Virus record (IMG/VR): IMGVR_UViG_2740892015_000011
Span: 1 to 44,382 of that record
Strand: one strand, 5' to 3'
Length of the DNA stretch: 44,382 bases
Source: a virus
Taxonomy: Duplodnaviria; Heunggongvirae; Uroviricota; Caudoviricetes
The position numbers were made by a program, and so were the translations under genes. Every line of letters starts with the position of its first letter. The first letter of the stretch is position 1. Below, in pieces: positions 18,357-37,793 of this stretch. The notes beneath the pieces were generated by a model. That model saw only the letters and a program-made list of their open reading frames with translations, searched no databases and was not told where the DNA came from.

Positions 18357-20486
18357 TTATTTCGGCAGGAGTTGCGATATTCGCTTACGTTTGACCGGCG
18401 CTGGTTCTTCAATAACCGCACCCGGCAGCTCGTAATTGATTTTTTCTTCCTGTCCAACTGGCGCTGGCAGGAACTTATCCGGATCGGCTTCGAGGTTGGC
18501 GGCCCGGACGTTGAGTTTTAACCCCATATGTTTGAGACCGCACAGCGCGGCATAGCTGTAAACGAGGCAGTCAAGCGCTTCGTTAGCTCGTCCTGGTATT
18601 GCTTCCCAGATACTGTACCGCTGCCCGGAAATGACTTTGTAAACCAGTCGCTCCGCCAGCAGCTGATTGAAGTACCCGAGATCGCGATCGTCAGGAAAAT
18701 GCATATAACCCGCAGCGGCGGCGCCAGGTTTGGGTGGCTCAAGATGCAGGCGACCGCGTATCACGTCTTTCGCTGAGTTAACCCCCAGAATGACAGGGCG
18801 GAAACTGGCTTTGCTTTTCGATGATGGTCGTTTGGTCGGCCAGACAGGATTGCGTTTGCCTCCCTGTGCAGACTCCCCCTTAATTGCCCAGACACGACGG
18901 CCAAGACGCTCTTTGGCGAATTCGTATACCTTCTGCGTATGGTGGCCGCCGGAGTCCATGCACGTTGCCATGATATTCAGGCCGCGCCCGTCACCACGTC
19001 GCCAGATCTGTTTCAGGTATGCATCCAGTCGCTTCCAGGGTTCTTCCGTCTCAAGGTCACCATAAATAACGTCATGCGCGACCGACCACGATTCTTCATC
19101 TCTCCCCCAGCCGGTGATCGTAATTTCGAAGCGATCGTCCTGGGTATCAACTCCAGCTGTTAACAATGCCACCCCGTCCGGAACGACGGCCGGAAATATT
19201 TCCCGGCGCGCCAGCAGAACATCAACAGGGAGCTGTTTCCCATGATTAGGTCGGTGCGGAAGCCCCATCTGGGTATTCCACCACGCCTGTTCCTTATCCG
19301 GATCGCCCTTCGCATCGATATATTTTTTCGCAATATCCGACGGCTTATCTTTTTGCCAGGGGCTGAAAAGCTTGGATGCCTGGTACCCCGCGTGGTGGTT
19401 ATCGACTGCCTCCTTTCCACAGGAGGGGCAGATTGCGCGATAGACCGCATGCCGTTCCGACTCTGACCATTGCCAGACCTTTTCAACGCTGCCCTCGTCT
19501 GCCGCCCGCCAGGCAAGGTCATAATCCATCAGCGGTGAGTGCCGCTCCCCGCAGCACTCAAATGGGCGCGTCTGATGCCATCGAATAGTGTGCAGAGCTC
19601 TGAGGCGCTGTCCTTCGGACCAGCCACTACCACAGCATTCGCAATAGAGCATCGCCGATTTAGTCAGGTGTTTATCTCCCTCTTTCGGCCACTGAACGTG
19701 TTTGAAAAAGTCGGGGAACTGGCGGTGGCCACAGTGCGGGCAAACCACAGATGCCCGGCGCTGATCGGAGTCGGCGTAGCTGTCAGCAATGCGGCTCTCA
19801 TCCTCCACCGTCGGCGAACAGGCGCGTACAGACAGCCAGGTCAGGCCAAATGTCGCTGTACGCTCTTCGGCCAGCGCAATTGGATCGCCTTCGCGGGTTA
19901 TCGGGTACTTGTCCACTTCATCCGCCAGCAGGACACGAATCGGACGACGCGCAAGGTTATCAGGGCTACCAGCACCCGCCAGCGCCAGAAATCCGCCAGT
20001 GAATGCCTTGTAAAGAATGGTTTCTTTCGAGCTTTTCTGTTTCGAATCACCGATGATTTTACGCAGTACCGGCGTCACCCTTACCAGCGGGCTAATACGC
20101 TCTTTCGAAAACTGTTCAGCGGCTTCTTCTTTCGGCTGCAGCAGCAGTATCGGACAAGGATCGAGGTGGGCAAAATAGCCAAAAAGGTTTTCCAGCAGTG
20201 CTGTCTTCATCAACTGGGTACAGCACATTACAGTGATGATATGAACCCCGGACTCCGTCGCGGCAAGCATCGGTCCGCGGGCAATTTCTACCGTCGATGT
20301 TTCCCAGTTTCCCGAAGTGCTCCCAGCCTCTTTTGCCAGCTTACGATAGTCATCTGCCCACTGCGGCACACTGATACGCGGCGGGGGTGTCCAGCCTTTG
20401 CGGACGCTTAATTCAAGACGCTCAATCTTCTGCCGGGTTAAACTCTGGCTCTCCGAGGACTGAGATGTGTTTGTGGACATGTTCAA
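18357..20486 (-). CDS. Terminase large subunit (lambda gpA-like)
   Basis: 709 aa downstream of the small subunit; true start may be a few codons inside the overlap with the small-subunit gene. Confidence 0.85.
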   Translation of the reverse strand: MNMSTNTSQSSESQSLTRQKIERLELSVRKGWTPPPRISVPQWADDYRKLAKEAGSTSGNWETSTVEIARGPMLAATESGVHIITVMCCTQLMKTALLENLFGYFAHLDPCPILLLQPKEEAAEQFSKERISPLVRVTPVLRKIIGDSKQKSSKETILYKAFTGGFLALAGAGSPDNLARRPIRVLLADEVDKYPITREGDPIALAEERTATFGLTWLSVRACSPTVEDESRIADSYADSDQRRASVVCPHCGHRQFPDFFKHVQWPKEGDKHLTKSAMLYCECCGSGWSEGQRLRALHTIRWHQTRPFECCGERHSPLMDYDLAWRAADEGSVEKVWQWSESERHAVYRAICPSCGKEAVDNHHAGYQASKLFSPWQKDKPSDIAKKYIDAKGDPDKEQAWWNTQMGLPHRPNHGKQLPVDVLLARREIFPAVVPDGVALLTAGVDTQDDRFEITITGWGRDEESWSVAHDVIYGDLETEEPWKRLDAYLKQIWRRGDGRGLNIMATCMDSGGHHTQKVYEFAKERLGRRVWAIKGESAQGGKRNPVWPTKRPSSKSKASFRPVILGVNSAKDVIRGRLHLEPPKPGAAAAGYMHFPDDRDLGYFNQLLAERLVYKVISGQRYSIWEAIPGRANEALDCLVYSYAALCGLKHMGLKLNVRAANLEADPDKFLPAPVGQEEKINYELPGAVIEEPAPVKRKRISQLLPK

Positions 20487-20991
20487 TCAGCACCTCTGTC
20501 ATCCTGTCCGCCGGTACATCCAGATCAGCAGCCATTAGCGGCGCCACCCTGGACGGCCAGTTAAGCCAGGCATCACGCTGTTGGCGAAAGGCGTTGAATA
20601 AAACCTCCTCGGCTGCTGTCAGCTCAATAAGCTGGCCGCTGTCTTTTTCATACTGCAGCTTTGCCTGCAGGGCCATGTAATTCTCGCGGATACGTCCCGC
20701 TTCCTCTCTCGAAAGATCTGCCCCTTCAGTGAGCATTATCTGGCGGACAGTTTTATTGATTTCATCACCGTCATCATCGTTATCGCTAACGACGGGAGTT
20801 TTCTTTTTCTTCGCGTTCGAGGCGCGCGGGTCTTTGCCATCGCGGTTTTTCTTCAATGCCGCATCGCTGGCCTCTACGTCAATCAGGTCTCCGTCCATCA
20901 CAATGAAGCGCCCGGCTTTAATCCACCGACCAATTGTTTTGCGATCCACACCTGAATGTTGTGCGTACTGACTCTGGTTCATCGTGGTCAT
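20422..20991 (-). CDS. Terminase small subunit (Nu1-like)
   Basis: 189 aa, N-terminal HTH-like region (YAQHSGVDRKTIGRWIKAG); immediately downstream of the GGGACAT repeat array. Confidence 0.6.
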   Translation of the reverse strand: MTTMNQSQYAQHSGVDRKTIGRWIKAGRFIVMDGDLIDVEASDAALKKNRDGKDPRASNAKKKKTPVVSDNDDDGDEINKTVRQIMLTEGADLSREEAGRIRENYMALQAKLQYEKDSGQLIELTAAEEVLFNAFRQQRDAWLNWPSRVAPLMAADLDVPADRMTEVLIEHVHKHISVLGEPEFNPAED

Positions 20992-21139
20992 GGGACATCA
21001 CCTGGGACATTTTCTGGGGTGGGACATTCGCCTGGGACATTTTTGCCATGTCCCACCAGAATGTCCCACTGGAATAAACTGGAATAGCCAGAGCTGGCGA
21101 GGTGTCCGTAATGATCGCCAGAGGTGGGACATGGGACAC
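20992..21139. repeat. cosB-like array of GGGACAT / ATGTCCC repeats (candidate terminase small-subunit binding sites)
   Basis: GGGACAT direct copies at about 20992, 21004, 21021, 21034, 21126 plus GGGACAC at 21133; inverted ATGTCCC at 21047 and 21061; begins at the terminase small-subunit start codon. Confidence 0.5.
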
Positions 21140-21281
21140 AAATCTGAAAGTTGTAGCTAGGAAAACACCGCGGCGCGCAATGCCCGTACCTTACAAAAGT
21201 CTCAGGAAGGACCCATTTTTTTAATGGCTTCGACCATTCGCTCCGACTATGATTATTCCTATTCAATACAAGGAGAATGTA

Positions 21282-21785
21282 ATGGGTAACAATATAATCA
21301 AAATAACTTTCGTAGCCGCAGTGCTGGCATCACCAATTGCTCATGCCCAGTGGGTAACTAATACTGAAGATGACCTTTTCTCTGGTGGTAAGAAAGCAAT
21401 GATGCTTGGCGAGGTTTCATCCGACAATGGCGCCATTGTGTTTGACTGCACTAAAGAAAAGCTATCGGCGGCATACGTTGAAATGGATAAAAGCACCGAA
21501 TCACTATCAGAGGTACCAATGGACCTGATAATGAAGGTCGACGGGAATACCGCAGTGAAGCTCGATGCTACCCTTTCAAGACGTAATGTTCAGAGCCTCC
21601 AGATTCAATCGGATGACGCGGACCAACTAAAAACAGTGCTTAAGCAGCTTCAGGGGGCGAAATCCAAAGTGTTAGTTGGTGTGCAAACAAAGGATGGCGG
21701 AAACCAGCATTCCATGTCAGCCAATGTTTCTGGATCGACAACTGCAGTAAACAGCTTCATAAAAGCTTGCGAAATTAACTTATAA
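21282..21785 (+). CDS. Secreted (signal-peptide) protein of unknown function; moron candidate
   Basis: AAGGAG RBS then MGNNIIKITFVAAVLASPIAHA-QW... (signal peptide with AHA cleavage motif); opposite strand to the late operon; AT-rich. Confidence 0.5.
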   Translation: MGNNIIKITFVAAVLASPIAHAQWVTNTEDDLFSGGKKAMMLGEVSSDNGAIVFDCTKEKLSAAYVEMDKSTESLSEVPMDLIMKVDGNTAVKLDATLSRRNVQSLQIQSDDADQLKTVLKQLQGAKSKVLVGVQTKDGGNQHSMSANVSGSTTAVNSFIKACEINL

Positions 21786-21795
21786 GTTACTGCTT

Positions 21796-22434
21796 TTATT
21801 TTGCCGTCCTGATGGCTTCTGCTATCGCCTGATTTAAAGCAGACGGTAGCAGTGCGTTCGCCATGGTACGGGCCCTATCCATATACCCCAGCACTGGAGT
21901 CACAGGTAGCGCATCACCAAACCGGATCAAAAGCTTTGGAGAACGCTGTTTGCGTTTCGGTCTTCGCGTCCCGTTAGCGGAACGTTTGGCCCGTCGCTTC
22001 TTAGCTTTCATCGGCTTCTTACGCTGCCAGACAGCGTTAACGCCATCAACCTCACCTACGAATACATTTTCCTTTGCTTTAAGCTGTGAGAGCTTATTAC
22101 GCGGCAGGTTGCCGTATTTATTAAGCTTTATGTCTTTCGGGTTAAGCAAAGCACTACCATTAAGCTTGTGCTCTCCGCCGAACTCGAAGGGTTCAAGGTA
22201 ACCAGCAGCAGTATCACGAACAAACACCTTCGCACGAAGGCTGTTTTTCCTGGCACCAACTGACCCAACCGATTTAACTGTAAAAGGTGTTGGATTATCC
22301 AGATGCCGCTCAAATGCTGTTCTTTGGGCTGACTCAATCTGGCGAACAACTTTAGTCATCGCCTGGGCAGTCGCAAACGGTATCTGCTTCTGCAACTGCC
22401 TTAACTGACTGGAAAGGTCTTTAAGCGTCGCCAT
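21796..22434 (-). CDS. Hypothetical basic phage protein
   Basis: ORF track 21796..22470; probable start MATLKDLSS...; Lys/Arg-rich tract KKPMKAKKRRAKRSANGTRRPKRKQRSPK. Confidence 0.35.
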   Translation of the reverse strand: MATLKDLSSQLRQLQKQIPFATAQAMTKVVRQIESAQRTAFERHLDNPTPFTVKSVGSVGARKNSLRAKVFVRDTAAGYLEPFEFGGEHKLNGSALLNPKDIKLNKYGNLPRNKLSQLKAKENVFVGEVDGVNAVWQRKKPMKAKKRRAKRSANGTRRPKRKQRSPKLLIRFGDALPVTPVLGYMDRARTMANALLPSALNQAIAEAIRTAK

Positions 22435-22515
22435 AACAGTCTCCGTAAGTATTGCCATTATCAAACCCACCTGTAGGTGGGCTTTGTAATGGCTATTTAT
22501 TCAGGAATGATCCGA

Positions 22516-22776
22516 TTAACCCACCACCGGCCCGGATGTACTCGTTGCTGTTGAGGCCGGTGCAGCTGCTGCATCTGTCTGGATTTGCTTAAGTCGGACC
22601 TGAACCAGCTCTTCCACTTTATCGGCTTCTGCTTTTGCTGCAGCAGCTGCCTCTTCCGCTTTCGCCAGGGCGTGGGCTTTGAACCAGTCACGGATTTTTA
22701 CCCAGCCGCCGGCGATGAGCAGAAACGCACTGGTCCCCGCAGAAAAATAGAGCAGAACACTATCAAAGAACGTCAT
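22516..22776 (-). CDS. Small membrane protein in the lysis cassette
   Basis: 86 aa, N-terminal hydrophobic segment then Ala-rich helix; ATGA overlap with the upstream gene. Confidence 0.3.
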   Translation of the reverse strand: MTFFDSVLLYFSAGTSAFLLIAGGWVKIRDWFKAHALAKAEEAAAAAKAEADKVEELVQVRLKQIQTDAAAAPASTATSTSGPVVG

Positions 22777-24154: not shown

Positions 24155-25207
24155 TTATTCCCCTGCCAACGCCCGTATTTCCCCCAACGTCTGATTAAAC
24201 CTTTCCTCTTCGAGTTCAACGCCAATAGCCTGGCGGCCAAGTTCCAGCGCGACTTTCACGGTCGAACCGGACCCCATAAAGAAATCAGCCACCACATCAC
24301 CAGGCTTACTGCTGGCGTTGATGATCTGCCGCAACATGTCAGCGGGTTTTTCGCATGGGTGTTTACCTGGGTAAAACTGAACGGGTTTATGTGTCCAGAC
24401 GTCGGTATAAGGAACGGATACGGAAACAGAGAAATGCCGCCGAAGTGATTTGTACTCTTCGAGCAGCTCTGAATATTTGCGATTCAACGAATGCCACAGA
24501 GCCACCAGCTGGTGGTGTGGTGTTGCCAGTTCGCCGTTCTGGTGTTTTTCGATGGCTACCTGCGTGAAAAGGGACTGAAGATTCCGGTAGTCTGATTCAT
24601 TCGGTAATTGCCACTGGCTACCGCTGAACCAGTGAGACACCATGTTCTTCTTTCCAGTCGCATCGGCTATTTGTTTTGAGGTTATGCCAAGCGCTTCACG
24701 TGCATCCCGGAAATAAGAAATTAGGGGAGTCATTACATGCTGCTTCAGCTCGCTTCCCTTCTCAGCGTACCCGTCGCTCTTTGGTTTATACGGCCCCTGG
24801 TAATGCTCAGCGAACAGGATGCGCTCTGTTGCAGGGAAGTAAGAGCGCAGGCTCTCTTTATTACAGCCATTCCAGCGGCCCGACGGTTTAGCCCAGATGA
24901 TGTGGTTCAGGACGTTGAACCGCTCACGCATCATGATCTCAATGTCTGCCGCCAGACGGTGACCTGAGAAAAGATAAAGACTGCCGGCAGGTTTAAGCAC
25001 TCGCCAGAATTGTGCGAGGCACATATCAAGCCAGCGAAGATAATCCTCATCCCCTTTCCATTGATTGTCCCAGCCGTTGGGTTTCACTTTGAAGTAAGGC
25101 GGATCCGTGACTATCAGGTCAATGGAGTTATCAGGGAGAGTTGCGATGTATTGCAGGCTATCAGCGTTGACTAACTCAACACTGTTTATAATTACAGTAT
25201 TTTTCAT
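24155..25207 (-). CDS. DNA methyltransferase, amino-methyltransferase beta class (N6-adenine or N4-cytosine), orphan
   Basis: DPPY motif near the N-terminus (LIVTDPPYF) and motif I near the C-terminus (DFFMGSGST); no adjacent restriction gene. Confidence 0.75.
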   Translation of the reverse strand: MKNTVIINSVELVNADSLQYIATLPDNSIDLIVTDPPYFKVKPNGWDNQWKGDEDYLRWLDMCLAQFWRVLKPAGSLYLFSGHRLAADIEIMMRERFNVLNHIIWAKPSGRWNGCNKESLRSYFPATERILFAEHYQGPYKPKSDGYAEKGSELKQHVMTPLISYFRDAREALGITSKQIADATGKKNMVSHWFSGSQWQLPNESDYRNLQSLFTQVAIEKHQNGELATPHHQLVALWHSLNRKYSELLEEYKSLRRHFSVSVSVPYTDVWTHKPVQFYPGKHPCEKPADMLRQIINASSKPGDVVADFFMGSGSTVKVALELGRQAIGVELEEERFNQTLGEIRALAGE

Positions 25208-29524: not shown

Positions 29525-31462
29525 TCAGGCGGCTGCACCCGCCTTTTGATTTGCACATAATTCAGGAAGATTTGCTTCTACCAGCGCACGAGCGAACGGC
29601 GGCGGTACTGCGTTACCACAGCGCGCTACCTGCTTGTCTTTGGCGTAACGATTGCCGCGATAGTCCTGATCGATAACGTAGCCGTCAGGGAAGCCCTGCG
29701 CCTTATAAAGCTCATGCGGTTGCAGCATGCGCATTCCGATATCGACGATCTGGTACTTAACCCCCTCGATCGTCACCAGCCATTCATCCTCGCTATCACC
29801 GCAGTAGGTTTCGAGGAATGTCCGGACCTCGCCAACGTGCTGGCCACCAGCGGTAATAGTCGGCATAGGTGTATCCATGGTCTGACCGTCGCGGCAGGTT
29901 CCGCGTAGCTTCACCAGGTGCGACGCAACTACCGCGTGGTGATCAACAGTAGTGACTGAGTGGGCAGGCTCATCCATACCAACACCCGGCCCCGTGTAAT
30001 TCCCACCATAGTGCTTCGCCAGGAACGCGCTCACCGTTGCAAACTTATTACCACCAGCAGTGACCGTGCCGAGCGGGTTATTCAGTTGAATAACACGCGG
30101 TTCTTGCCCTGGGCGTTCGCCGTACCCCATCTGGATCAGTGTTGGAGTTACCAGCTGCGACTTACCGCCACCACCAGCAGTAATCGTCGCGCTCGGTTCG
30201 TCAGCCCTGTGCCCAACACTGGCGCCAAACTGGCGGGCGATGACCGGAGCAACAACGCACGCGCGGGACTGCTTGAGGATTGTATGAGCGGGTTTATCCA
30301 GCGGGCGCGGCTTTGCCTGGTACTCACTGCCGCCATTGCCAGCCAGGAACGGTGTCAGGGCGGCCTCAACTACGCCAAGCGCATGCCCATTCCCGCCTGG
30401 GCGCGCCGACGTACCAGCGGTGACAGTTGGAACCGGCTCGGTCACTGGCTGCCCGGTGGCCCCGGTGCGGAATTTAGTAAGATGCGGTACCGCCAGCGCG
30501 TAGCCATGCTTTTTAGTGATGGTCTGCAATGGCTCTAACAACGATTGCCCGCGGAAACAGTCATAACCTCCTTTCGTCGTGGTGTGGTTACACTTCACGA
30601 TGAAAGGTGATGCACTTTCGATAACAAAGCGCTGGATGCCGCGCGCGATACGTTTGAGCGTATTTTCCGCCAGCGGCTTTTTGCGGTCGAAGATGGAACG
30701 GGCCGGGATGTTCCAGTCAATGCACTCCGCCGCGGTACGCCATGGCGCCAGCTTGCCGCTTTGTACTTCCAGTGATTTTGGATCCCCATGAGTCGCTTCA
30801 GGCCAATGAATCTTGCGGCCGTCACAACGCATGACCATGAAGAAACGCTTTCTGATCGTCGGCGCGCCGTAGTCACAAGCGCGCAGCTCACGATAATCGA
30901 CCTCATAGCCAAGCCCGGCGATCAGCTGTTGCGCCTGCTGGCCGTGCGGCTCAATGGCAAGAAATTCACAAACCTCAGCCAGTGCTGGGTGATTCGCCGC
31001 GATACCAGTCGACAGCATGCCGACAAATGCCTCAAATGTTTCACCAGCACGCTCAGGATCCGGGCGTAATTCTTCATCCAGCAGCGGGCCCCATGTCTTA
31101 AATTCTTCGACGTTCTCCAGCATCATGACGCGGGGACGTACTGACAGCGCCCAGCGCAGGACAATCCACGCCAGCCCGCGAATCTCTTTCTTAACCGGCT
31201 TAGCGCCCTTCGCTTTGGAAAAGTGGCGGCAGTCAGGGCTAAACCAGGCCAGACCAACAGGTTTACCGCTGGTGGCTGCACTTGGGTCAACGTCAAACAC
31301 CGACTCGCAATAATGCAGCGTGTCCGGGTGATTCGTCTTATGCATCGCAATAGCGTTTTCGTCGTGGTTGATAGCGATATCCACGCTACGCCCGATCGCC
31401 AGTTCAATGCCGGTACTCGCGCCACCACCACCAGCAAAGTTATCAACGATAATTTCACGCAT
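29525..31462 (-). CDS. DNA (cytosine-5) methyltransferase, large phage-type
   Basis: Motif I IVDNFAGGGGASTG, catalytic FSPDCRHFSKAKG (Pro-Cys), ENV motif MMLENVEEF; probable start MREIIVDNF... (ORF track extends to 31516). Confidence 0.8.
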   Translation of the reverse strand: MREIIVDNFAGGGGASTGIELAIGRSVDIAINHDENAIAMHKTNHPDTLHYCESVFDVDPSAATSGKPVGLAWFSPDCRHFSKAKGAKPVKKEIRGLAWIVLRWALSVRPRVMMLENVEEFKTWGPLLDEELRPDPERAGETFEAFVGMLSTGIAANHPALAEVCEFLAIEPHGQQAQQLIAGLGYEVDYRELRACDYGAPTIRKRFFMVMRCDGRKIHWPEATHGDPKSLEVQSGKLAPWRTAAECIDWNIPARSIFDRKKPLAENTLKRIARGIQRFVIESASPFIVKCNHTTTKGGYDCFRGQSLLEPLQTITKKHGYALAVPHLTKFRTGATGQPVTEPVPTVTAGTSARPGGNGHALGVVEAALTPFLAGNGGSEYQAKPRPLDKPAHTILKQSRACVVAPVIARQFGASVGHRADEPSATITAGGGGKSQLVTPTLIQMGYGERPGQEPRVIQLNNPLGTVTAGGNKFATVSAFLAKHYGGNYTGPGVGMDEPAHSVTTVDHHAVVASHLVKLRGTCRDGQTMDTPMPTITAGGQHVGEVRTFLETYCGDSEDEWLVTIEGVKYQIVDIGMRMLQPHELYKAQGFPDGYVIDQDYRGNRYAKDKQVARCGNAVPPPFARALVEANLPELCANQKAGAAA

Positions 31463-32789
31463 TGACGGCCCCCTGCATGCTGTTGAAGAGACCACCAGCG
31501 GTCGTGATAATTTCACTCGTCGGCATACGTTCGAGCCACAGCTGGTTGATATTGGCTTTCAGCTTGTTCTGTTGTGAAACAGGTAGAGCGTCAGCACCTT
31601 CAATCTGGTTAAACACCAGGCCAACCTCAAGAGGCCAAACGCGCGATTCGTTTAACGCCTTGTCCTTTGATTCCTGCGTCTCACGTACATGAGCGCGGAT
31701 CCCCCGAATATTTGACCATTTGGCTTTATCCAGGCTTTCCATGGTCGCGATGAATTCACTGTGGTTGATGCCGTATTCTTTCGCAGATTCAACGGCAACC
31801 GTGCGAAGCCGCTCTGACATGTCTTGTTTCACGTCATCGCTATCAAAGGGCAATGTTTCCAGCCATGCATTAACACCCACCAGGATGCTCTCGCTGATCA
31901 GCTTTTTCGCTCTATCGATCGTCAGCGGTGAAACATTGGTAAATTCAGGGTTTTCCAGAGAGTCGGCAGCCCAGGTATGACCAAACTTTGACTCGCTGAA
32001 GGTGTACTCATCTTTCTCGCCGAACGCCGCGACAACACAGGCCCAAGCTTCTACACCACTGGTTTCCAGAATGGCTTTTTGGGTTAATGGCAGTTCTGCC
32101 TCTGATTTCTCCGGCACTACCTCAGCGTCCAGCTCCGGCGCCGCATCAGTTTGCGTTCTTCCCACGGCAAACTGGGCCAGCGACATCGAAGCACGGCCTT
32201 TGGCCTCCAGGTCGGTGCGGTTGATGTAACTGAAACGTTCACCCCGCCATGTTTTGTCGAAGACCACGATAGCGCCAGCAAAAAATGCGCTGGTTGGCTG
32301 CTGCTTTTCGTCTTTCGGCACGAACCATGTAGGAAGATCGAAACCAATTCGGCCACGGATGAATGTGACGTGATCTGCTTCTTCCGGCCACCACGTCTCA
32401 CTCGTCGCAGACTTAATGAGAAAAACGTACCGCCCCCCCTTTTCTCGCATTGCCATAGCGTGGTTAATGATGTGGGTCATTCCGGTAATGGCCTGCTTGT
32501 CGTGATACTGAGAGCGGCTGTAAGGCGGGTTGCCAAACCCGGCACCACCGAGTTCTGCCAGACGCTCAGACCAATCCTGTGTCAGGGCATTATCTTCAGC
32601 CGTGTACCATGCTGGGCACTTCGCGTTGCTGTCGTCGGCAAAAAGGTCCAACACCAGAGGGCCGAACATCGCATTGATACCCCAAAACAACAGATCCGGA
32701 GTGCGCCATTGATCGCCGACCTCTTTCAACTCGTGGGCTGGTCTTGAACGCAGTTCAACCAGCGCACGGCAGTATTTGCTTTCAATCAT
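31455..32789 (-). CDS. Phage Dam-like N6-adenine methyltransferase domain fused to a ~260-aa C-terminal domain of unknown function
   Basis: N-terminal WRTPDLLFWG, DLFADD and GFGNPPYSRS (NPPY) motifs; remainder unrecognised. Confidence 0.6.
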   Translation of the reverse strand: MIESKYCRALVELRSRPAHELKEVGDQWRTPDLLFWGINAMFGPLVLDLFADDSNAKCPAWYTAEDNALTQDWSERLAELGGAGFGNPPYSRSQYHDKQAITGMTHIINHAMAMREKGGRYVFLIKSATSETWWPEEADHVTFIRGRIGFDLPTWFVPKDEKQQPTSAFFAGAIVVFDKTWRGERFSYINRTDLEAKGRASMSLAQFAVGRTQTDAAPELDAEVVPEKSEAELPLTQKAILETSGVEAWACVVAAFGEKDEYTFSESKFGHTWAADSLENPEFTNVSPLTIDRAKKLISESILVGVNAWLETLPFDSDDVKQDMSERLRTVAVESAKEYGINHSEFIATMESLDKAKWSNIRGIRAHVRETQESKDKALNESRVWPLEVGLVFNQIEGADALPVSQQNKLKANINQLWLERMPTSEIITTAGGLFNSMQGAVNA

Positions 32790-36962: not shown

Positions 36963-37793
36963 ATGTCCCAGATTTTAGACGGCAATGCCCTGCAGCAGGT
37001 GAAAGACCTTGTTCTTTCCGGTTATCACCTTACTGCAGTTAAAGAAACAGCATGCCCTACTGCCCTGCTCCCTGATGGCGTAAACGTAGAGAGCCTTGAG
37101 CGTTTCGATCTGGAGCGTTTTCGTTTCCGCGGTGCCATGACCACAACCAGCATTCCTGACTTTGTTCGTTATGCAGCTGGCTATGCCAACGAAGCTGAAC
37201 CGGCGCGATGCTTTATCGATGCTGATAACATGACCGCACGCTCCGTGTTCAATATCGGTACTCTGGCTAACCCTGGCCATGCTGATAACGTCGCATCTAT
37301 CACCCTCAAAAAGACAGCGCCATTCCGAGCCCTACTTCAGGTAAATGGCGATCGACTGGGCCAGAAGGAAATTGCTGAATGGCTGGAGGACTGGGCCGAC
37401 TTCCTGAGCGCATTTGATGCCGACGGGAATGTGTTGTCCATCGCGCAGGCAGCTGGTGCCGTTCGTCGCGTCAATATCAAACAAGTCTCGGAAGCAGCTC
37501 ATGAAGACGAAGATTTTGGCGGCAGAAAGTCCCTGATGCAGAGCGTTGAAGCCAGCAGTAAAGACGTGATGCCTGTCGCCTTCGAGTTCAAATGCGTGCC
37601 GTATGAAGGCCTGGGCGAACGCCGCTTTAGCCTGCGTAACAGCCTGCTTAAAAGCGGGGAACCGGTGTTTGTACTCCGCATCGTTCAACTGGAAGCCCAG
37701 GAAGAAGCTATCGCCAACGAGTTCCGTGACCTGCTGATCGAGAAGTTCACCGACAAGCCGGTTGAAACCTTTATCGGTAACTTTAAAGCGTAA
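36963..37793 (+). CDS. YfdQ-like phage protein of unknown function
   Basis: 276 aa; size and neighbourhood (followed by an HD hydrolase) match the yfdQ-yfdR pair of CPS-53-type prophages. Confidence 0.4.
   Translation: MSQILDGNALQQVKDLVLSGYHLTAVKETACPTALLPDGVNVESLERFDLERFRFRGAMTTTSIPDFVRYAAGYANEAEPARCFIDADNMTARSVFNIGTLANPGHADNVASITLKKTAPFRALLQVNGDRLGQKEIAEWLEDWADFLSAFDADGNVLSIAQAAGAVRRVNIKQVSEAAHEDEDFGGRKSLMQSVEASSKDVMPVAFEFKCVPYEGLGERRFSLRNSLLKSGEPVFVLRIVQLEAQEEAIANEFRDLLIEKFTDKPVETFIGNFKA

Follow-up and report, generated by a model that had tools for sequence, protein, structure and literature searches.

Genes and features at the locus

The window, that is, the whole stretch of 44,382 bp that was analysed, represents a temperate prophage. 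Its tail is contractile, and it encodes an integrase, a CI-like repressor, two DNA methyltransferases and a lysis cassette. E. coli MLI104K1 (NZ_CP116923) has the segment 20300-21900 of the window with 100% identity, and matches to this segment were found in 59 of 5,426 complete E. coli genomes. On the minus strand, the gene for the terminase small subunit (terS) is followed by those for a gpA-type large subunit (terL), gpW and a lambda-family portal, and the distance from the repeat array described here to the replication and immunity genes exceeds 4 kb. This array, of 149 bp (20991-21139), stands directly 5' of terS and consists of eight copies of TGGGACA[T/C]. The features of the locus, in the direction of terS, are as follows.

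21205..21215, minus strand: cosQ-like block TGGGTCCTTCC, identical throughout the Enterobacterales relatives and almost invariant in those from Achromobacter, Rhodanobacter and Burkholderia
21172..21183, minus strand: cosN, with a predicted 12-nt 5' cohesive end GCATTGCGCGCC; nicks are expected at both borders
21140..21171, minus strand: I2-like spacer GCGGTGTTTTCCTAGCTACAACTTTCAGATTT with T-tracts (bp 13-44), which aligns with CGCGGGTTTTCGCTATTTATGAAAATTTT of lambda
21125..21139, minus strand: sites S1 and S2, which form the tandem doublet GTGTCCCATGTCCCA and occupy bp 45-59, where lambda has R3
21069..21124, no strand: 56-bp spacer that separates the doublet from the inverted pair and corresponds in position to lambda I1; poorly conserved except for two copies of TATTCCAG
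21049..21068, plus strand: sites S3 (21062-21068) and S4 (21049-21055), inverted relative to terS, 13 bp apart, R2-like
20991..21039, minus strand: sites S5 (21033-21039), S6 (21020-21026), S7 (21003-21009) and S8 (20991-20997), a direct, R1-like cluster
20422..20991, minus strand: terS (189 aa; ATG at 20991-20989), terminase small subunit, phrog_57, E 4.6e-36
18357..20486, minus strand: terL, gpA-type large terminase (Pfam GpA_ATPase PF05876, 2.8e-64; GpA_nuclease PF20454, 2.2e-78), the enzyme expected to nick cosN

Immediately upstream of this region, away from the tail genes, lies a 'minor tail protein'-like gene (21796-22470 (-), phrog_1924, E 7e-63). Its position is kept in the phages BZS1 and phiNP and in most relatives, and was remarked on by the authors of BZS1; a packaging or late function is possible. 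Between this gene and cosQ, on the strand opposite to its neighbours, a 178-aa ORF (21249-21785 (+), phrog_19473) has a hydrophobic N-terminus that could be a signal peptide. It was found in the window and in two relatives (L004 and L005), and in L006-L008, L012 and L015 the upstream gene stops ~10-20 bp short of cosQ, so that the ORF looks like a moron inserted beside cos. The methyltransferases are encoded at 24155-25207 (-) and 29525-31516 (-), with matches to phrog_67 and to phrog_116/23072, in a prophage whose cosN has GCGC motifs.

The repeat array

An exact search of the window located GGGACAT on the plus strand at 20992, 21004, 21021, 21034 and 21126, the inverted form ATGTCCC at 21048 and 21061, and GGGACAC at 21133. 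This confirmed the count of the original prediction, made from the letters of the sequence, of at least five direct GGGACAT copies, one GGGACAC and two inverted copies within about 150 bp. All GGGACAT and GGGACAC copies of the array can be extended to TGGGACA[T/C]: on the plus strand, the 8-mer TGGGACAT starts at 20991, 21003, 21020, 21033 and 21125, TGGGACAC at 21132 and the inverted ATGTCCCA at 21048 and 21061. The array had also been said to begin at the start of the small-subunit gene. It does abut the ATG, the last A of the final repeat being the A of the start codon, but it lies upstream of the minus-strand terS and not inside it.

Read in the direction of terS, the repeat unit is (A/G)TGTCCCA, and the tandem doublet nearest to cosN is followed by two inverted and then by four direct copies. 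Counted in bp from the chromosome end, the sites are placed as >> (46, 53), << (116, 129) and >>>> (145, 158, 175, 187). Sites S5 to S8 follow each other in steps of 13, 17 and 12 bp, and the Shine-Dalgarno sequence of terS, AGGTGA (20998-21003), falls between S7 and S8.

The whole 44,382-bp window has eight GGGACAT copies, seven of them inside the 149 bp and one at 36963. Shuffled sequences gave an expectation of 5.14 copies per window, or ~0.017 per 150 bp, and at least seven copies in 150 bp had a Poisson P of ~1e-16. Outside the array, TGGGACA occurs in the 44-kb window as singletons only (11188, 25066 and 36964), and an exact search over the 44,382 bp of the prophage returned no second cluster of the motif.

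A predicted cohesive end shared with a mapped phage

By tblastn with terL, the closest characterised phages were Serratia vB_SspM_BZS1 and Citrobacter phiNP (48% identity); a megablast of 20300-21900 against the phage collection gave no match. In the BZS1 record, the 12-nt left cohesive end GCATTGCGCGCC is annotated 74 bp ahead of terS. This 5' overhang comes from PhageTerm analysis of virion reads, and the single 12-bp cos was confirmed by comparing the sequence of a prophage-cos PCR product with the virion ends (PMC7556043). The same 12-mer is present in the window on the minus strand at 21172-21183 (plus-strand form, GGCGCGCAATGC), within the GC-rich stretch 21165-21185 in which a cosN candidate had been placed beforehand; with 12/12 bases identical to the BZS1 5' end, that placement holds. 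The comparison with the cos regions of related phages that had been proposed along with it was run, and revealed the 12-mer, cosQ, the I2-like spacer and the repeat doublet as shared parts.

A scan for terS over the genome collection matched 42 loci, and the exact 12-mer was found upstream of terS in 20 of them, as well as in phiNP, over a range from Enterobacterales to Achromobacter and Rhodanobacter. A literature search for the cohesive-end sequence matched solely the BZS1 paper. The cohesive end predicted for the window is taken over from BZS1, whose terL is just 48% identical. In the wider family, cosN variants were seen upstream of terS in L019-L024, L029, L031, L041 and L132. The variant GCATTGCGCGAG belongs to E. 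coli L132 and to the satellite-like elements described below, GCACTGCGCACC to Paraburkholderia and GCAATTGCGCACC to Cupriavidus, and a quite different, GGGAGCGAAGACTCGCGG-type cosN is found in Pandoraea and Burkholderia relatives. All loci with a cosN variant retain the cosQ block and the repeat doublet.

The flanks of the cosN nicks are lambda-like, with TACGG on the left and GCGGTGTTTTC..GCTA, also GCGG(T)GTTTTC..GCTA, on the right. Upstream of cosN, the heptamer GGGTCCT occupies 21208-21214. In a sequence alignment this corresponds to -31..-25 relative to cosN, and the same heptamer, which we take to be lambda cosQ, stands at -30..-24 in lambda. When the TACGG flank and cosQ are aligned to lambda, the BZS1-type overhang begins one base further right and the distance from cosQ to TACG is identical (26 nt); the 1-nt offset means either that the nick is truly shifted or that the end was called imprecisely. 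The lambda cosQ is a conserved site of 7 bp that is needed for termination (PMC4669245); literature searches for the sequence of cosQ gave no usable match.

On the other side of cosN, the pattern GTTTT..AGCTA.AA.TTT..A.TTT of the I2-like spacer is kept in all relatives. In lambda, I2 is an essential, intrinsically bent and AT-rich segment of ~33 bp, the length of which sets the accuracy of nicking (PMC4856287), and the spacer at 21140..21171 would likewise set the distance from cosN to cosB. The position of the doublet that follows is kept in every heptamer class described below, e.g. as GGTAACAGGTAACA, GGTTTCAGGTTTCA or GTTCGCACC(C)TGTTCGCAC, and in all classes the first terS site starts at bp 45-48 from the chromosome end.

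The 56-bp spacer between the doublet and the inverted pair is more variable. The tandem TATTCCAG(T) at 21069-21086, just before the inverted sites, is kept in a subgroup from E. coli, Kluyvera, Raoultella and Salmonella, and could represent either decayed heptamers or the site of a bending factor. The Ewingella, Rahnella and Hafnia relatives are without this tandem, and in them a GTGCATAnnTATGCAC palindrome adjoins the doublet. The corresponding spacer of the Providencia and Xenorhabdus relatives measures ~75 bp and is strongly AT-rich. The IHF consensus WATCAANNNNTTR had no match with up to one mismatch anywhere in the cos region of the window and none consistently placed in the relatives, and this consensus is loose, so that weak IHF binding or another bending factor would be compatible with the negative scan. 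As the scan was negative between the doublet and the inverted pair, an IHF site I1 is not claimed, and a lambda-style IHF hairpin is not supported here.

The small subunit and its predicted DNA-binding domain

The terS protein has a predicted N-terminal winged HTH (~residues 1-50) with a predicted recognition helix at 17-25 (DRKTIGRWI), which is proposed to be the reader of the heptamers. The C-terminal part (~100-189) is a conserved module that presumably faces terL. In an AF2 model of moderate confidence (pLDDT 67 overall, ~78 for the N-domain), the N-domain consists of a strand, a helix (6-13), the helix 17-25, a wing (~26-38) and a further helix (39-50). Foldseek with this domain gave a weak match to the DNA-binding domain of lambda gpNu1 (1j9i; TMt 0.50, E 0.34), and others, with weak E-values of 0.1-1, to the TerS DNA-binding domains 7lw0/7lwr, to Xis (Pukovnik), to BldC and to RppC, with 6hn7 also among the entries matched; the class of these matches is that of small MerR/Xis-type wHTH domains. 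By BLASTP, residues 4-34 are in register with residues 3-33 of lambda Nu1 (29%, E 0.043). The recognition helix of Nu1 is at 17-24 and its wing at 31-39 (PMC9026076).

A search of terS against Pfam returned no significant family, and over 17 members of the terS family the matches were weak (HTH_28, HTH_17, MerR), with Phage_Nu1 at E 0.11 in one member only. A terS profile against the PDB sequences gave a marginal match, to RppC alone (E 0.05). Identical terS sequences are present in E. coli, Kluyvera and Citrobacter, and most members of the family are annotated as 'hypothetical protein'.

The heptamer changes together with the terS N-domain

Both cosQ and, almost to the same degree, cosN are conserved across ~45 relatives, and the heptamer shifts in step with the predicted N-terminal wHTH of terS. 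At least five heptamer classes were found in this one family, which spans Gamma- and Betaproteobacteria, each with its own terS signature.

TGTCCCA class: terS ..YA[QK]H[SA]GVDRKTIGRW
GGTAACA class: terS ..FAxLHGVSRKTVTxW
GGTTTCA class: terS ..FARLYGVSHTAVAKW
GTTCGCA class: terS ..FARREGCSDTLVRRA
GTTTGCA class: terS ..FSRREHVSDTLVHRA

Between relatives, the heptamer always differs as a complete set, and the places and orientations of the sites are retained. In the long GGTAACA form of L016, for instance, copies stand at 48 and 55 (direct), 136 and 148 (inverted) and 165, 177, 190 and 202 (direct), and the two inverted copies are at the equivalent place in all the long forms of this class (L016-L018 and L128). 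A short form, with the doublet and one further copy, is present in BZS1, phiNP and L132.

Two natural mosaics delimit what is exchanged. An Edwardsiella locus (L015) is window-like in terL (89% aa), in the terS C-domain (84%) and in the upstream gene (86%), and has a BZS1-like terS N-domain (77%) together with GGTAACA repeats; an E. coli locus (L128) is the same mosaic. At the DNA level, the window is homologous to both over 21215-21140, that is, cosQ, cosN and I2 (90-94%). The homology ends exactly at the first repeat (21140/21139) and resumes at 20637/20648, at terS codon ~115. Therefore, the exchanged cassette comprises the array and terS codons 1 to ~115 (20638-21139 in the window), and the DNA-binding part of terS is the only coding sequence that was swapped with the array. 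In BZS1 and phiNP, an N-domain of the GGTAACA type is joined to an unrelated terS C-domain, with ~21% identity to that of the window.

Conservation within the TGTCCCA class was followed in 53 unique sequences. A viral-contig scan with a narrow alignment returned close relatives only (88-100% identical), which served these statistics and added no new heptamer class. In these, the bases of the direct repeats are 98.6% and those of the inverted repeats 98.9% conserved, compared to 82.3% for other aligned positions, and cosN and cosQ are 100% conserved. To judge from this comparison, the repeats are under purifying selection.

As the array adjoins terS, the covariation of heptamer and N-domain has to be read with the caveat of physical linkage. 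Two observations go beyond linkage: all eight sites change to one new heptamer with their places and orientations kept, and a TGTCCCA array also occurs away from a terS of its class, on the elements described next. This concerted change and the unlinked array argue against mere linkage, without proving binding.

Satellite-like elements with two cos sites

The unlinked array was found in E. coli 2015C-4136CT1 (L129; NZ_CP027550.1, ~1657800-1673540) and in E. coli EC12 (L131; NZ_CP070229.1). In these elements, ~15.7 kb long as measured in 2015C-4136CT1, genes for an integrase, a primase, an SSB, a ProQ/FinO protein and PerC-family regulators are present, and no terL, portal or capsid genes were found in either of them. 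Each element has two cos sites in the same orientation ~5 kb apart (960-2213 and 6003-6250 in L129; 3720-4974 and 9008-9260 in L131), both with GGGTCCTTCC and GCATTGCGCGAG. The first cos has TTTACAC repeats followed by three ORFs, the third of which is a terS homologue with yet another N-terminus. The second consists of cosQ, cosN, I2 and ten copies of the TGTCCCA class, with no gene downstream.

The organisation of the element is the same at different chromosomal sites in the two strains. The second cos, the terS-like gene and the same layout at another integration site make it less likely that L129 is a cos-only remnant of a prophage, and a mobile satellite is the more likely reading of both copies. 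The element may be a PICI-like parasite of phages of the window type.

Weighing of the alternatives

We consider it very likely that 20991-21215 is a cos site on the lambda plan, belonging to a temperate contractile-tailed E. coli prophage, with the repeats as the cosB that terS would read. The expectation of cosB-like small-subunit sites beside the nicking site is borne out by the comparison of position, orientation, conservation and covariation with terS. A lambda-type packaging signal would in itself be ordinary; what appears to be new is the recognition heptamer and the multiplied R-site layout. No description of the cosB of this phage group was found in the literature searched.

The repeats had alternatively been proposed as binding sites of a transcriptional regulator, and could be operators for a late-gene regulator, or for terS as an autoregulator of the terS-terL-head operon, rather than a packaging signal. 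The Shine-Dalgarno of terS is enclosed by S7 and S8, S8 reaches the start codon, a site 0-3 nt from the ATG is kept in both the TGTCCCA and the GGTAACA classes, and regulators with this wHTH fold, such as BldC and Xis, bind arrays of direct repeats. However, a promoter scan found no sigma-70-like promoter in 20800-22600, and the motif has three scattered singletons and no cluster elsewhere. The start of the array is also fixed relative to cosN in all classes, the terS N-domain is the only protein part that covaries with it, and on the terminase-less element the array is kept beside cosN with no gene after it. The operator proposal is unsupported on these grounds and seems quite improbable, although terS that occupies S7/S8 may secondarily affect its own expression. 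Arrays of short direct repeats are also known from pac regions (e.g. that of SPP1) and from origins, so that the array could belong to a pac-type region for headful initiation or be a set of origin iterons, unrelated to cohesive ends; SPP1 is mentioned in the work on lambda cos (PMC4669245). Against this, terL is of the gpA type, BZS1 as the closest characterised relative has 12-nt cohesive ends, the 12-mer and the GGGTCCT of lambda are present, the replication and immunity genes are distant, and the repeats covary with terS and not with a replication gene. Headful and origin readings are therefore disfavoured to the point of being barely credible; origin iterons, a pac site and CI operators were considered and rejected.

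A third alternative concerns the extent of cosB. The doublet beside cosN might be functional alone, as in the single-site cosB of N15, with the six promoter-proximal copies as dispensable relics or as accessory sites of little effect. The relatives BZS1, phiNP, L132, L020 and L028 have the doublet and zero or one further copy, with only 70-75 bp from cosN to the ATG, and lambda R1 is accessory while N15 needs only its R3 (PMC4669245). For these short-form relatives such a reading is plausible. For the window it is unlikely, since the distal copies are conserved as strongly as the doublet, the independent long forms of the GGTAACA class (L016-L018 and L128) show them again in like number, orientation and spacing, and the satellite-like element also retains a large distal cluster.

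A proposed mechanism and its significance

With the array taken as cosB, packaging could proceed as follows. The N-terminal wHTH of terS would read the heptamers, and terS on the doublet, at a fixed distance from cosN, would place the gpA-type terL so that its two nicks are staggered by 12 nt. [quoted passage not shown] With a distance of 7 bp, the tandem sites may leave too little room for two wHTH domains at the same time. A more speculative extension, to which we give little weight, is that the long cosB (2+2+4) forms an IHF-independent scaffold on which DNA is folded or wrapped on a terS assembly, with one heptamer per DNA-binding domain; the eight sites would equal in number the terS subunits, also eight, of a lambda-type (TerS2:TerL1)4 terminase. 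In such a scheme, the pairs of heptamer and recognition helix would be a swappable code that phages exchange and satellites copy to be packaged.

The analysis gives a position for the packaging origin of a prophage that is widespread in enterobacteria, and for its predicted chromosome ends. The natural series of matched terS-HTH/heptamer pairs in a conserved architecture makes DNA recognition of the gpNu1 type directly testable, and the binding of lambda terS to DNA in vitro is too weak for a direct study of recognition (PMC6739421). [quoted passage not shown]

Comparison with known cos systems

The order cosQ-cosN-I2-cosB and its direction relative to terS and terL are the same as in lambda, as is the length of the predicted 5' end (12 nt), and the large subunit is of the gpA type and encoded with gpW and a lambda-family portal, with the predicted wHTH of terS in register with Nu1. 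Lambda cosB is arranged as R3-I1-R2-R1, with R2 opposite to R3 and R1 (PMC4669245), and the critical bases of R3 are at bp 55-63 (PMC4669245; PMC9026076). In the window, the first terS site is likewise at ~bp 45-60 and the middle group is inverted, so that the pattern R3(>)-R2(<)-R1(>) is drawn in 2+2+4 heptamers. In contrast, only 5 of 12 cohesive-end bases are identical, each R is a group of heptamers instead of one of three sites of ~16 bp, the R3-to-R2 spacer of 56 bp has no IHF consensus, terS is below the Pfam Phage_Nu1 threshold and the tail is contractile.

The covariation recalls the specificity classes of lambda, 21 and N15 studied by the Feiss laboratory, in which cosQ and cosN are common and cosB and the terS recognition helix are class-specific. 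The unit exchanged in lambda-21 and lambda-N15 hybrids matches the cassette found here, the array plus terS codons 1 to ~115. As with N15 and Monarch, a 'simple' and a 'complex' cosB exist under one specificity, here in BZS1 and in L016-L018, respectively. The difference is that at least five heptamer classes, as putative specificity classes, occur in one family here. BZS1 and phiNP share with the window the identical cohesive-end 12-mer, the cosQ block, I2 and the gene order, with a phrog_1924 gene ahead of cos, but have a short cosB of three GGTAACA copies and 74 bp from cosN to the ATG; the cosB repeats are not discussed in either the BZS1 or the phiNP paper.

Finally, the satellite-like elements resemble EcCICFT073, a cos-type PICI of E. 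coli, in their two cos sites, in a helper-like cosQ and cosN and in a terS-related HTH protein. EcCICFT073 carries cos1 and cos2, and its Rpp has a TerS-like DNA-binding domain (PMC6739421). Neither of its cos sites has the cosB of the helper, whereas one cos of the elements described here carries the heptamer class of the window phage, which suggests direct mimicry.
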